A stretch of 57,618 nt of DNA from an uncultured Clostridia bacterium (GCA_944393325.1 CALXZU010000004.1:1-57618), one strand, 5' to 3'; numbered from the stretch's first letter, positions 51,458-55,794 are shown. Notes: generated from the sequence alone by a model not told the origin. Translations and numbers: made by a program.

Positions 51458-51673
51458 TAAATCTTCTTGTAAATTTGCAATTGGATCTCCTTTACAAGCA
51501 AGTACTGATGCTGAAAATGGAACTCCAGCTGCAGATTGTGGGTATACATCTACACCATGGTCAGTATAATATGCATCAAGTCCCGCTTCTTGTATTTGCT
51601 CTATTGTAGCATTTTTAGTTAATTGATGCACTATAGTTCCTACCATTTCTAAATGTGCTAATTCTTCTGTTCC
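51450..51673 (-). pseudogene. cotJC: cotJC (Mn-catalase family) middle fragment
   Basis: GTEELAHLEMVGTIVHQLT...DHG...YPQSAAGVPFSA...KGDPIANLQEDLAA; no homologous sequence or RBS upstream. Confidence 0.88.
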
Positions 51674-51750
51674 ATGATGTTGTCAATTAAAAAATTTGTA
51701 GTTATTGGCTGTGAAATGGTATATAAAAAAGTTCACAAAGTGAATTAAAG

Positions 51751-51769
51751 TACACTAAGTGAACTTTTA
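51751..51769 (+). repeat. 19-bp direct repeat, copy 1
   Basis: TACACTAAGTGAACTTTTA, identical to 55594-55612; also the right arm of the hairpin after toxN. Confidence 0.8.
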
Positions 51770-51773
51770 TTTT

Positions 51774-52304
51774 TTAAGCTTTATATTCAGCACTTTTTTC
51801 TTCTAATAGTTTGAAATCACAACTTAGCTCCTTATAAAATTTAGCCATCTTACTTTTACTATTTTTAGTAACTATACTATAAATCTTTTCTGCTTTTTCC
51901 ATAATTTTTGCTTTATTTTCGGGCTTGTTTATGTAAGAATATTGTTCTGAAAGTAGTCTTTTATATCCATAACTTTTACTTTTTATATCTAATAAATAAA
52001 CACTTTCTTGTGGTACTGGTATCATATCTGAAAATCTAATTATACCTAAATCATTTTTTGTTTTAGTATTTCTAATTTTGAAAAAAGTTAAATTATCTTT
52101 ATATGTTTTATGTTTTGGCTTTGGAGAAAATAAAGGTGCAAAATAATAATGTTCTTCAACAATAATCACAACTCCTATGTATGGTCTTTTTTCATTTTTG
52201 TTATAAGCAATATGTTTATCAAATTGACTTAAATATTTAATATAATTATCATCTATAATATAAAAATTTAATTTTCCTAATTTTATTTTCTTTGAATTTT
52301 TCAT
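51774..52304 (-). CDS. Type III toxin, ToxN/AbiQ family endoribonuclease
   Basis: LNFYIIDDNYIKYL...RPYIGV...YFAPLFSPKPKH...LGIIRFSDMIPVP...DFKLLEEK. Confidence 0.88.
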   Translation of the reverse strand: MKNSKKIKLGKLNFYIIDDNYIKYLSQFDKHIAYNKNEKRPYIGVVIIVEEHYYFAPLFSPKPKHKTYKDNLTFFKIRNTKTKNDLGIIRFSDMIPVPQESVYLLDIKSKSYGYKRLLSEQYSYINKPENKAKIMEKAEKIYSIVTKNSKSKMAKFYKELSCDFKLLEEKSAEYKA

Positions 52305-52325
52305 TTATTCCTCCGTATTACAAAT

Positions 52326-52355
52326 ATAGGGGATACTTTTTTAAGTACCCCCATA
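52326..52355 (-). terminator. Terminator between antitoxin RNA and toxin gene
   Basis: GGGGGTACTT-AAA-AAAGTATCCCC with a weak U tract; canonical type III layout. Confidence 0.8.
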
Positions 52356-52361
52356 ATTTTT

Positions 52362-52520
52362 CTGGAAACTCGTTTATAGTAAACTAAAGGCTCGTTTCTA
52401 ACCTAATGTTCAATAGGATATTCGTTTATAGAATTCGCATTCTAAAGGCTCATATCTAACCTAATGTTTAAATTTGCACTTGTTTATGACATTAATCAAA
52501 GGCTTGTGCAACCTAGTTTA
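52362..52520 (-). ncRNA. Type III antitoxin RNA, three pseudoknot repeats
   Basis: AGGTT...AGCCTTT...TAAAC units with periods 52 and 58 nt, between promoter and terminator. Confidence 0.85.
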
Positions 52521-52554
52521 TTTGATAAATTAATTTATCAATATTAGTATATTT

Positions 52555-52583
52555 ATTATACTTCATTTTATTTACAAAATCAA
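52555..52583 (-). promoter_or_regulatory. SigA promoter of the type III TA operon
   Basis: TTGATT-17 bp-TATAAT; perfect 20-bp palindrome TTGATAAATTAATTTATCAA at 52522-52541 just downstream. Confidence 0.75.
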
Positions 52584-52641
52584 TATTTTTTGTTGAATTT
52601 TCATAAATTTCACATACATCAAGTGAATTAATTAATATACT

Positions 52642-54510
52642 CTATTTTTTATCTAGTTCACTAATCTCTTTGCTTTTTATCCATTCATTATATTTTTTTA
52701 TAAGGTTTTGTTCAAAGCCAATATATGAGTTTATATCAATATTTTTATATTGATATGTTTCATATATTTTTTTAAATATAACTGTGATAAAATCTTGATT
52801 TTCTAGTATATTATTATTTTTAATATATTCAGTCAAAGGTTTTATTTTTAACAATAAGGAGTCTTCTTCTATATTTCTACGTTTATAATTCCTATATTCA
52901 AAATCAATTGTTTTTTTGTCTATAATTTCTTGGATTTCATCTATTTTTGTATTGTCACATGATAGAATATACATCAAATCATCAAATCTATATTTCGCGA
53001 TTTTTGGAATTTCCTTATTCTCTACAATGTAATCTTCTAATCCAATATCGTAATCATCCATTTTTTGTAAATTTAATATACAATTAGCATTTTCTCCAAC
53101 TAACCAATTTGAGGCTATTTCTATTCCAACCCATTTTGCTTTTTTATTCCTAGTATCTTCAATTGATAAAATAATATCATTTTCTTTTATTCTCTCAATC
53201 TTTTTTAATTTTTGATAATAACAATATATATTTTGTCCCGTATTTAAATTTCTAAAAAAATCTAGTTCATCATTATAATACAGAATATGATATACATATA
53301 TACTATAAAATATATCTAAATAATAATTTGAATCCACATCGTTGTTCTCTACTAATTCTAAAAAAGCTGATATTATTCCAGAAAGAATTCTAATATTTTC
53401 AATTCTCGTGTTGTGCCATATTTTATTTATATCATCACTAATGTCATAGAAAAATTTTACTAATTGTCCCTTTTTCTCTAATGAAAAATCCATATTGTTA
53501 TCTAAAATTTTATTAGATAATTCTATAAATATTTTTTCGTTTGAAACAATCCTAAATTTTTTACAATCTAATTTACATTCAAACATTTCATGCACAAAAG
53601 TTTTACTAATTTCATTAGTATTACATAAAATTATAACTTTCATATCATATCTGTCAACTAATTCATTAATAATTCCTATGACTACATTGTATCTTGATAA
53701 AACTTGGTACTCTACACTACTTTCATCACTACTTCTATGTTCAGATGTATTATACATTCTTCTGTTACTCATCTGAAGTCTAGTAAGAGCTCTTCTCATT
53801 TTTCTTTTATTTATCCTATCATTTATATCTCCTAATGGTGTAATCCTTTCAAAATCATCAAAGATAAAAATGGAGTTTTGTGATATATCTTTTAATTCAT
53901 AGTCACTTTTTAATATTCCAACCAAAAAGTCTCCTATTATCGGAATTTTGTTAATTAAATTTAATATTTTTTTAGTTATTGAATCATCTTCAGTTTCAAA
54001 AATTGTTTTCATTTCTTTTAATATTGTCTCTCTACCCTCTAAGCCAAAGCATGAAATTTTATAAACTTTTCTATTTTGATACTTATAATAATTATTAAAA
54101 AATCTATTTATTGTATAAGTTTTTCCACTTCCCCAGTCTCCTATTAATAAAAAAGCTCTCTTATCTTTACTATTTAAATATTCATATATTGACTTGTATA
54201 CCTTTTGTGTTTCTTCGCTTTTTAATTCTTTTAATTGCTTTCTTTTTAGATATTTATTTTGATATAAATATTTCCTTATTAGAAAAAACACAAAATATAC
54301 CATAATAGAAATAATAAACAAATAAATCTCTACTTTACAATATTTTATAATTTGTTCATATATTTCTGATATTTTACTTGCTATATTATCGTTGAATATA
54401 AAAATTATCAGTTTTTTTATTGTTTCTCTAGAAGAATCATACATAAACATTAAATATATAATTATATTTGTAATGGATAAACTATTAAATACTTTTACTA
54501 TTTTTTTCAT
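52642..54510 (-). CDS. KAP-family P-loop NTPase with N-terminal TM segments
   Basis: LIGDWGSGKT Walker A, IFIFDDFER Walker B. Confidence 0.8.
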   Translation of the reverse strand: MKKIVKVFNSLSITNIIIYLMFMYDSSRETIKKLIIFIFNDNIASKISEIYEQIIKYCKVEIYLFIISIMVYFVFFLIRKYLYQNKYLKRKQLKELKSEETQKVYKSIYEYLNSKDKRAFLLIGDWGSGKTYTINRFFNNYYKYQNRKVYKISCFGLEGRETILKEMKTIFETEDDSITKKILNLINKIPIIGDFLVGILKSDYELKDISQNSIFIFDDFERITPLGDINDRINKRKMRRALTRLQMSNRRMYNTSEHRSSDESSVEYQVLSRYNVVIGIINELVDRYDMKVIILCNTNEISKTFVHEMFECKLDCKKFRIVSNEKIFIELSNKILDNNMDFSLEKKGQLVKFFYDISDDINKIWHNTRIENIRILSGIISAFLELVENNDVDSNYYLDIFYSIYVYHILYYNDELDFFRNLNTGQNIYCYYQKLKKIERIKENDIILSIEDTRNKKAKWVGIEIASNWLVGENANCILNLQKMDDYDIGLEDYIVENKEIPKIAKYRFDDLMYILSCDNTKIDEIQEIIDKKTIDFEYRNYKRRNIEEDSLLLKIKPLTEYIKNNNILENQDFITVIFKKIYETYQYKNIDINSYIGFEQNLIKKYNEWIKSKEISELDKK

Positions 54511-54544: not shown

Positions 54545-54925
54545 CTATTTATTTAATAATGAATATCCACCATCTGGCGTTACTATTGAACCCGTAAATA
54601 TCTTAGATGTTGCTAACATTAAATATACTTCTGCAATTTCTTTTGGTTCTATAAATTTATTAATTGGTATATTTTTAAGCCAAGCTTGTTTCATTTCATC
54701 TGTTACTGTATCCATATAGTTTGTATATACAAATCCTGGTGCAACTGCATTTACATATATTTTAGGGGCTAATTCCATTGCTAAAGTCTTTGTGAAACTA
54801 TTCATACCTGCTTTTGCAGAACAATATCCAATAATACCTGCTCTACCAGAATAATCTATACCTCTAATTGAAGATGTGCTAACAATCCAACCTTCATCAT
54901 TCATTAAATCTATAGCATATTTTGA
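54545..54925 (-). pseudogene. SDR oxidoreductase C-terminal fragment
   Basis: SSIRG, YCSAKAG, VNAVAPG, TPDGG; N-terminal Rossmann fold absent. Confidence 0.8.
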
Positions 54926-55527
54926 ACTATTTTGAAAAATGTATATGCTTCTTCTGATTTTTTGTCATAATCAATAGATGTCGCTATAAATAAATCTGTT
55001 ATTTTTTGATAAGCCATTCTTTCGCTTGTACGAATTACTTTAATTCTTGCTAATAACTCATCAAAATATTGCCTATTTACTTTGCCACCTTTTAAAAATC
55101 TATCATCATCTAAAGCAAAACCTTTTACCATATATTCTTTTATTATTTTGTTTGCCCATTGTCTGAATTTCACTGCTTTTTTTGAGTTTACTCTATAACC
55201 AATTGATATAATCATATCTAAATTATAGTATTTCGTTTTATACTTATGTCCATTTTTTCCAATAGTCTCCAAAATGGAGAATGTTGAATCTTCTTCTAAT
55301 TCCTCTTGTTCATAGATATTTGCTATATGTTTATAAATTGCTTTATCATTAACATCAAATAATTCTGCAATAGCTTGTGCATTTAGCCAAACATCTTCAG
55401 TTTGTAAAATTACTTCTATATTAGTATTTCCTTCTTCATTCGTATAAAATACGATATTATTTTTATTTCCAATTAATTTGTTATTATAATAAACCAACTC
55501 CGTTTTTTGTTTGTTATATATTATCAA
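54910..55527 (-). pseudogene. 3'-truncated RhuM-family protein
   Basis: YNLDMIISIGYRVNS, FRQWA, EYMVKGFALDD, RIKVIRTSER; stops at FFKIVQNML*. Confidence 0.75.
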
Positions 55528-55593
55528 ACAATTGTTCTTTTGTCAATTGATTTATTATATATTTATTATATTTTGTTTAATGATTTTTATTAA

Positions 55594-55612
55594 TACACTA
55601 AGTGAACTTTTA
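55594..55612 (+). repeat. 19-bp direct repeat, copy 2
   Basis: TACACTAAGTGAACTTTTA. Confidence 0.8.
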
Positions 55613-55794
55613 CTTAAAGAATGGTGAAATTTTGAATTCATTCAGTGAACTTACGTACTCTAAAGGGCATTTTTAAGTCGTTCATTTGGTGAATTTTTAC
55701 ATCAAATTTGCTTAAAATTTTTGTTCTTTTAATAACTCTAGGAGGCTTGTCCTTCTACGTGTGTAGGTGATGTGTTAAGCATTACTATCCTGCT

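Follow-up and report, generated by a model that had tools for sequence, protein, structure and literature searches.

What is encoded on the minus strand at 52362–52541 of a 57,618-nucleotide stretch of DNA (the window) from an uncultured Clostridia bacterium, and why are its three repeats unlike one another? A preliminary description read this segment as a type III antitoxin: three divergent pseudoknots, each with a compensatory stem 2 and a loop hairpin. That identification holds, since a toxN gene adjoins the array and the proposed pairs are supported by covariation. The minus-strand locus is, with good probability, a complete toxIN (type III) toxin-antitoxin cassette carrying three unlike pseudoknot units; its toxicity and neutralization are predicted from sequence.

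The adjoining gene specifies a 176-residue endoribonuclease of the ToxN/AbiQ family. The product scores 142 bits against Pfam PF13958 (ToxN_toxin), for which the cut-off is 25, and has a PADLOC AbiQ match at 5.7e-46. Its matches in the PDB are 4ATO (ToxN_Bt, 6.7e-22), 7D8O (ToxN_Ec, 2.2e-20), 2XD0 (ToxN_Pa, 1.3e-19), and 4GLK (AbiQ, 4e-14). No toxin of the cptIN or tenpIN type was found: the Pfam scan at E ≤ 0.01 gave PF13958 alone, and the PDB search gave ToxN/AbiQ chains alone. Catalytic Ser60 is invariant and Lys62 is retained, corresponding to Ser53 and Lys55 of known ToxN. Residue 59 (PLFSPK), the equivalent of active-site Thr52 in ToxN_Ec and ToxN_Pa, is Phe in the clade and in a more distant locus, L053, but Thr or Ser in six other aligned ToxN/AbiQ proteins; cleavage specificity may therefore differ. 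Across 41 related loci with a full-length gene, amino-acid identity is 0.81 as against 0.555 at fourfold-degenerate sites, which indicates that toxN is under purifying selection. The window holds a single toxN within its 57,618 nt, as does each related locus.

Read along the minus strand, the elements are ordered as follows: promoter-like site, leader hairpin, three units, AUUAU, terminator, GGAGG, and toxN.

52555–52583, minus strand: promoter-like site, TTGATT-17 nt-TATAAT (consensus scan, 10 of 12 matches; block conserved in related loci)
52522–52541, minus strand: leader hairpin, UUGAUAAA-UUAA-UUUAUCAA, 8 bp (97.3% of cells paired, 55 distinct arrays)
52466–52517, minus strand: unit 1, 52 nt, with stem 1 at 52514–52510/52504–52500
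52509–52506/52479–52476, minus strand: unit 1 stem 2, GCAC/GUGC, with loop hairpin UGAU-UAAU-GUCA at 52498–52495/52490–52487
52408–52465, minus strand: unit 2, 58 nt, with stem 1 at 52462–52458/52450–52446
52456–52452/52421–52417, minus strand: unit 2 stem 2, GAUAU/AUAUC, with loop hairpin UAGAAU-GCGA-AUUCUA at 52444–52439/52434–52429
52358–52407, minus strand: unit 3, 50 nt, with stem 1 at 52404–52400/52392–52388
52398–52394/52369–52365, minus strand: unit 3 stem 2, GAAAC/GUUUC, with loop hairpin UAG-UUUA-CUA at 52386–52384/52379–52377
52353–52357, minus strand: AUUAU, start of a partial fourth unit (read from the sequence and the 56-array alignment)
52319–52352, minus strand: intrinsic terminator, GGGGGUACUU-AAAA-AAGUAUCCCC followed by a U-rich tail (10-bp stem plus T-run, conserved in relatives)
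52310–52314, minus strand: Shine-Dalgarno sequence GGAGG, 5 nt ahead of the toxN ATG (read from the sequence; conserved in relatives)
51774–52304, minus strand: toxN, 176 amino acids, ToxN/AbiQ-family endoribonuclease (PF13958, E = 1.9e-41)

The locus thus displays three of the features by which Blower 2012 defined the toxIN family of type III systems: a ToxN/AbiQ-like toxin; a tandem array upstream; and, separating the repeats from the toxin gene, a short palindromic terminator. (A cis-regulatory leader or a small ORF is ruled out: the layout is canonical for type III systems, and no ORF of at least 40 amino acids is present in the array on either strand.) TTGATT-17-TATAAT resembles a σ70 promoter by its match to the consensus. 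The leader hairpin, present in both the MFE and centroid folds, is better conserved among related arrays in its stem (identity 0.94) than in its loop (0.72). The terminator hairpin is G+C-rich, and the scan for terminator-like sites found this one against 0.1 expected. Taken with the A-run before it, AUUAU gives another copy of the junction motif AA(A/C)AUUA, and may serve as a processing site.

All three units have AGGUU/AGCCU as stem 1, and its starts are spaced 52 and 58 nt apart. These spacings match the periods given in the preliminary description, which had also placed stem 1, every stem-2 word, and the loop hairpins where they are found on the minus strand within 52362–52541. Two details require adjustment. 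That interval does hold the array, but it also takes in the leader hairpin (52541–52522), which lies outside unit 1. In the unit-1 hairpin, three base pairs (UGA/UCA) are conserved as described, but the fourth (U-G) is specific to the window, being paired in 10.9% of relatives.

The 5′ strand of stem 2 lies inside the stem-1 loop, and the two stems cross to form an H-type pseudoknot in each unit. The three stem-2 helices are unlike at four of five positions, yet each pairs; the chance probability of these 14 fixed-register pairs, from base composition alone, is about 3e-6. The long loop (1b-2b) carries the extra hairpin along with a conserved strand, UAUAAAC(G/A)A. The published ToxI template comprises two crossing stems, a loop 2a-1b of 1–2 nt, a loop 1a-2a of 3–4 nt, and a variable loop 1b-2b (PMC3401426). 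The window units share with it the crossing stems, a loop 2a-1b of 1 nt, and the variable long loop, whereas their loop 1a-2a of 0–1 nt is outside the pattern; their stems are longer, their long loop contains a hairpin, and the units run to 50–58 nt. Tandem Repeats Finder, applied to the window, did not detect the array, and further units beyond the three were not found in the window.

Nested-only folding recovers stem 2 and the hairpin in every unit, and the fold of the whole transcript beats shuffled sequences (z = −3.05). Single-unit folding energies are no better than those of shuffles (z = −1.2, −1.1, and +0.2), and so the case for the fold rests on covariation.

Relatives of the toxin provided the comparison: 68 loci of species-representative genomes, with toxins 58–100% identical, all from uncultured gut Clostridia MAGs (human, rabbit, mouse, goat, and deer samples). 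A protein search with the toxin returned 508 cluster representatives at E ≤ 1e-10; among the matches listed, identity was at least 76%. A search of viral contigs for relatives found no close one. About 55 related loci in species-level MAG genomes contain these three units, in unchanged order. In an alignment of 56 related arrays (A1), the proposed pairs hold in 96.3% of cells, as against 29–51% in slid controls, in which the 3′ partners were moved by 1–3 columns. Double-sided pair changes numbered 13 versus 5.3 in shuffles, and none of 500 shuffles reached 13.

Each unit varies in its own manner. The stem 2 of unit 1 is built in relatives from at least five word pairs (GCAC/GUGC, ACACU/AGUGU, AAGC/GCUU, ACAUA/UAUGU, and GCAUAA/UUAUGU) and has at least 4 bp in 55 of the 56 arrays; one position of its stem 1 is UA in 36, UG in 14, CG in 3, and AU in 2. 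Within unit 2, one stem-2 pair changes (GC48/GU4/AU3) and the other four are invariant, and the hairpin stem covaries freely (GC32/AU19/GU4). Every cell of the unit-3 stem 2 pairs, with changes that are one-sided only (GC44/GU11). Covariation supports the crossing stems of the units. Among the points that weigh against the cassette explanation are the loop 1a-2a outside the template, the one-sided changes in unit-3 stem 2, and the single-unit energies.

Why, then, do the units differ? Between loci, units at the same position are 0.83 (unit 1), 0.90 (unit 2), and 0.92 (unit 3) identical; inside one locus, unlike units are 65–73% identical and differ by indels. The excess of between-locus identity (83–92%) over within-locus identity argues against concerted evolution, and the units have stayed different because concerted evolution is absent. 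These comparisons indicate that the three units are separately conserved, and orthologous by position. The three unit types are retained even where toxin identity has fallen to 73%.

Conservation is uneven within the units. For the 41 loci with full-length toxN, mean pairwise identity is 96% in stem 1 (all units), 98% in unit-2 stem 2, 96% in unit-3 stem 2, 91% in the loop strand UAUAAAC(G/A)A, 75% in unit-1 stem 2, and 69% in the hairpin loops. This pattern, set against 55.5% at the fourfold sites of toxN, points to sequence-level selection on stem-2 words in units 2 and 3, beyond mere pairing. The likeliest benefit of heterogeneity, put forward here as a weakly supported suggestion, may be that the array is safe from out-of-register mispairing or recombinational collapse. 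Two observations count against it: the geometry of out-of-register mispairing, in which a 1-nt loop would have to cross the stem 1 of the next unit, so that mispairing is kept only as a weak idea; and near-identical arrays (antiQ, 98%; E. coli, 95–97%; Lactococcus), which function without heterogeneity.

Transcription of the array was followed in assembled (Logan) contigs of public gut metatranscriptome runs from separate studies.

X6, gut: contig 52391–52535, no mismatch; array depth 206, toxin about 2
X16 and X17, chicken gut, same sample: contigs from 52349 or 52348 to 52522; array depth 99 and 122, toxin 0
X14, feces: contig 52349–52500; array depth 3.9, toxin 0
X26, feces: contig 52391–52506; array depth 12–20, toxin 0

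Contigs of runs X12 and X15 are likewise restricted to the array, at a depth of about 2. RNA depth falls across the terminator, in the high-depth runs from 100–200 over the array to 0–2 over the toxin. Array RNA is thus in large excess over toxin mRNA, and the drop in depth fits terminator-limited readthrough into toxN. The same arrangement keeps the antitoxin in excess in ToxIN (PMC3401426).

Certain RNA ends recur: 5′ ends at 52519–52523, directly past the leader hairpin (X12, X15, X16, and X17); 3′ ends at 52348/9 (X14, X16, and X17); and a 3′ end at 52391, AG|CCU of unit-3 stem 1, common to three unrelated studies (in X6 and X26 the adapter is attached there, and in X28 a contig ends there). 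These match neither the predicted cuts between units nor an A-rich site of the ToxN type. They may be priming hot spots, G+C-rich within an A+U-rich RNA, or the product of a host RNase, or real ends. Contigs cross both unit junctions unbroken, and the assembled contigs give no sign of processing; unbroken contigs are expected in any case, because standard RNA libraries lose RNAs under about 100 nt.

How would such a cassette work? From one promoter, a transcript would carry the leader hairpin and three non-identical ToxI-type pseudoknots, each folding by itself. The majority of transcripts would end at the terminator, with a minority reading through into toxN. If the solved ToxIN complexes are a guide, as homology suggests, cutting of the precursor by ToxN would fall in its A-rich junctions, presumably within AA(A/C)|AUUA, to give RNAs of 52, 58, and 50 nt. 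The enzyme would then stay bound to the cut RNAs as a closed, inactive ring, probably of 3:3 stoichiometry by analogy; with three units per array, each transcript would supply one ring. The role of the whole might be anti-phage, or stabilization of the element that carries it.

The border motif occurs at all four unit borders: before unit 1 as AUAAAC-UAGG (AUAAAUUAGG in many relatives); between units 1 and 2 as AAACAUUAGG; between units 2 and 3 as GAACAUUAGG; and past unit 3 as AAAAAUUAUGG. ToxN_Pa cuts at AA|AU, and ToxN_Bt at A|AAAA. The internal junctions, AAACAUU and GAACAUU, are poorer in A than these two sites or the known ToxN_Ec site, which counts against the proposed cutting. For ToxIN_Ec, ring assembly, processing, and a cut at GAAAU are documented (PMC8860590). 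More generally, once the ToxIN precursor has been cut by ToxN, the enzyme and the product RNAs remain together as a closed ring, with three copies of each (PMC8860590; PMC3401426).

A different arrangement, which is unlikely, would make the three units an obligate heterotrimer: three non-equivalent pseudoknots, each at a defined edge of the ToxN3 ring, or one covalent chain, such that no single unit suffices. It would account for the presence of exactly three units in fixed order in about 55 species, and for stem-2 words in units 2 and 3 that are conserved (0.98 and 0.96) far above the need for pairing while the unit-2 hairpin stem and unit-1 stem 2 covary freely; known ToxIN complexes are, moreover, 3:3 rings (PMC8860590). 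However, the solved ToxIN rings in the literature are described with one repeat type, single ToxI repeats are reported to neutralize ToxN, and the two non-identical repeats of TenpIN each rescue alone. In L053, where the toxin is 58% identical, two units have the same stem-2 5′ word, GAAC. The abundant RNA contigs that span all three units with no break at the junctions would suit a covalent chain, but are expected regardless, given the loss of short RNAs from standard libraries. Were the heterotrimer true, conservation of stem-2 words would reflect unit-specific contacts or graded stabilities, which would set release of the complex on phage infection or element loss.

Still less likely is that no more than one or two of the units, probably 2 and 3, are true antitoxins, with unit 1 decaying or accessory and the differences between units a product of drift. 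Unit 1 is indeed the least conserved (0.83 between loci as against 0.90–0.92, and 0.75 in stem 2), its loop hairpin is merely 3 bp, and its junction is one base shorter than the others. Nevertheless, at least five word pairs maintain the pairing of its stem 2 (in 55 of 56 arrays) and its stem 1 covaries, which is selection on the fold rather than decay; and no locus with an intact toxin has lost unit 1.

This last point emerges from a comparison of array and toxin integrity in 64 loci free of contig-edge cuts, scored without alignment. All 49 loci with intact toxN keep all three units. Beside a dead toxN (frameshifted, internally deleted, or truncated), the array is kept in 9 of 15 cases and lost or damaged in 6 (Fisher p = 6.7e-5). 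Array damage only beside dead toxins is the order of decay to be expected of an RNA that guards against the protein, and indicates that the toxin dies first as a locus decays. Orphan three-unit arrays beside dead toxN are present at L050, L054, L057, L059, L061, L062, L066, L067, and L068. (Some frameshifts at these loci could be MAG assembly errors.) In one damaged array, L064 (1330–1500), units 2 and 3 have recombined in their common CUAUAAACGA segment, which sets GAUAU opposite GUUUU; the recombinant has a hairpin of the unit-2 type and a tail of the unit-3 type, and the adjoining toxin is reduced to residues 1–97. L064 can be read as a natural experiment, in which a mismatched stem 2 goes together with a truncated toxin.

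The functional proposal of the preliminary description, that unlike units neutralize unlike ToxN variants, including toxins encoded elsewhere, is very improbable: although the units do differ in stem 2 and 3′ tails, and the nine intact arrays beside dead toxN are readable as immunity to toxins encoded elsewhere, such orphans are equally expected from the normal order of toxin-antitoxin decay, the window has one toxN and no extra units, each related locus has one toxN, and the unit types stay constant, independent of toxin divergence.

The cassette borders an insertion into a Mn-catalase (cotJC-like) gene. A fragment of this gene (51404–51646) has its end some 100 nt past the toxN stop, and RNA contigs from other organisms follow the sequence as far as 51667–51674 and then diverge, which marks an insertion junction. 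In 19 related loci, too, this catalase fragment is close to toxN, often about 130 nt downstream; the upstream neighbor varies. On the other side are genes for a 622-residue P-loop NTPase-like protein (52642–54510, minus strand), which matches PDC-S49 in its N-terminal part only (E = 8e-15), and a 205-residue protein (54910–55527, minus strand), which matches PDC-S05 (E = 8e-73). These matches of the neighbors to candidate anti-phage families place the cassette in what looks like a small defense-island-like segment. The palindrome AGTTCAC-N3-GTGAACT occurs in four copies, compared with 0.14 expected: two at 51730–51765 and two at 55592–55651. Together the four bracket about 3.9 kb that contains toxIN and the genes for the 622-residue NTPase-like and PDC-S05-like proteins, and may act as operators or as sites for a recombinase. 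ToxIN_Bt helps its plasmid to be retained through sporulation (PMC4615649); by analogy, an element that interrupts a spore-coat gene might conceivably have a similar stabilizing role.

Understanding of the type III mechanism is unchanged. The generality of unlike units in Firmicutes toxIN systems has been under-appreciated. Surveys for toxIN rely on Tandem Repeats Finder (PMC3401426), and would miss arrays of unlike units such as that in the window; the consequence extends to type III annotation in gut metagenomes. Antitoxins of toxIN systems can be fixed sets of unlike pseudoknots, as in the gut-Clostridia clade, ToxI_Bt, and clostridial arrays. The related arrays offer naturally occurring covariation data on the ToxI fold, and raise the question of why given stem-2 sequences, beyond their pairs, are conserved in each unit.

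How does this array compare with known RNA families and systems? An Rfam scan of 51700–52700 at E ≤ 10 gave no hit on the array. Rfam's sole ToxI model, RF02519 (34 positions, Bt type; gathering score 50 bits), gives 59, 47, and 40 bits for the pAW63 repeats, 27 bits for antiQ, and nothing at E ≤ 1 for the E. coli array (L074). The Rfam miss by itself says little, because RF02519 also misses ToxI of the E. coli/P. atrosepticum type. Since this model misses both the window and the E. coli array, no existing RNA family covers the pattern; coverage by an existing family was what the preliminary description had named as one thing that would undo its reading.

The preliminary description overstated one contrast, namely that the repeats of known systems are typically about 35 nt long and nearly identical. 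In toxIN antitoxins, repeat length is 31–62 nt, in 1.9–5.6 copies (Blower 2012, PMC3401426); ToxI_Bt repeats match at 75%, and those of other clostridial arrays at 69–78%. Blower 2012 (PMC3401426) also includes a 12-nt hairpin insertion in loop 1b-2b in Clostridium sp. HGF2 (entry 70), along with a further three arrays (entries 10, 11, and 30), with units of about 60 nt, that resisted alignment. These resemble the window units in the loop hairpin and in lengths up to 62 nt, but are catalogued as consensus repeats or left unaligned.

ToxIN_Bt (Bacillus thuringiensis pAW63; 4ATO, RF02519) supplies the nearest of the solved toxins, at E = 6.7e-22 and about 35% identity. Like the window, it has about three units; the order promoter, array, terminator, and toxN; an A-rich junction followed by UU(A/G)G; and three non-identical repeats (75% match) with compensatory, position-specific changes. 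Unlike those of the window (50–58 nt, and 65–72% alike), its units are 34 nt and lack a loop hairpin. The position-specific compensated differences of ToxI_Bt are kept on plasmids of B. mycoides and B. cytotoxicus (L069, L075, L076, and L077 are Bacillus plasmids).

ToxIN_Pa and ToxIN_Ec (pECA1039; 2XD0/2XDB/2XDD, 7D8O) belong to the same toxin family (E about 1e-20), and share the H-type pseudoknot with its 1-nt loop 2a-1b and an AGGU...ACCUUU core that equals the window stem 1 (L074). They differ in having 5.5–6.6 near-identical repeats of 35/36 nt (95–97%), a loop 1a-2a of 3–4 nt rather than 0–1, stems of 3–4 bp rather than 4–5 bp, and no hairpin in loop 1b-2b. Near-identity was likewise measured for antiQ (98%) and the Lactococcus array.

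Several clostridial arrays follow an A-B-A plan. In that of C. perfringens p5, the 51-nt A units have an AUCU-UUAU-AGAU loop hairpin, and the 35-nt B unit has no hairpin and a different stem 2; its outer units are identical and its middle unit is hairpin-less, whereas the three window units all differ, all bear hairpins, and keep their order across species. The arrays of a Clostridioides phage (78% match) and a C. botulinum plasmid (69% match; L071, a 1.7-kb toxIN stretch, cassette only) are also A-B-A, each with a compensated middle unit; the conclusions stand without the C. botulinum locus, since the phage and C. perfringens arrays follow that plan as well. L072 and L079 were among the comparison loci for the A-B-A arrays (Clostridioides phage and C. 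perfringens p5).

TenpIN (Nadig 2025, PMC12283969; cryo-EM 2026, PMC13682666) resembles the window in having non-identical pseudoknot repeats missed by Tandem Repeats Finder, but has a toxin of another family, two repeats, and a 2:2 ring. Both of its unlike repeats are functional antitoxins, each of which rescues alone, and the complex is 2:2 (PMC12283969; PMC13682666). In these papers, toxIN repeats are stated to be near-identical, and non-identical repeats are treated as a feature of tenpIN (PMC12283969; PMC13682666). As judged from their repeats, the window clade, ToxI_Bt, and the clostridial arrays contradict that description of toxIN. None of the window's departures from the ToxI template is wholly new, and unit heterogeneity is likewise found elsewhere. 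The window array is a variant design of a known system, in part already on record: three pseudoknots that are non-identical, hairpin-bearing, and conserved by position.
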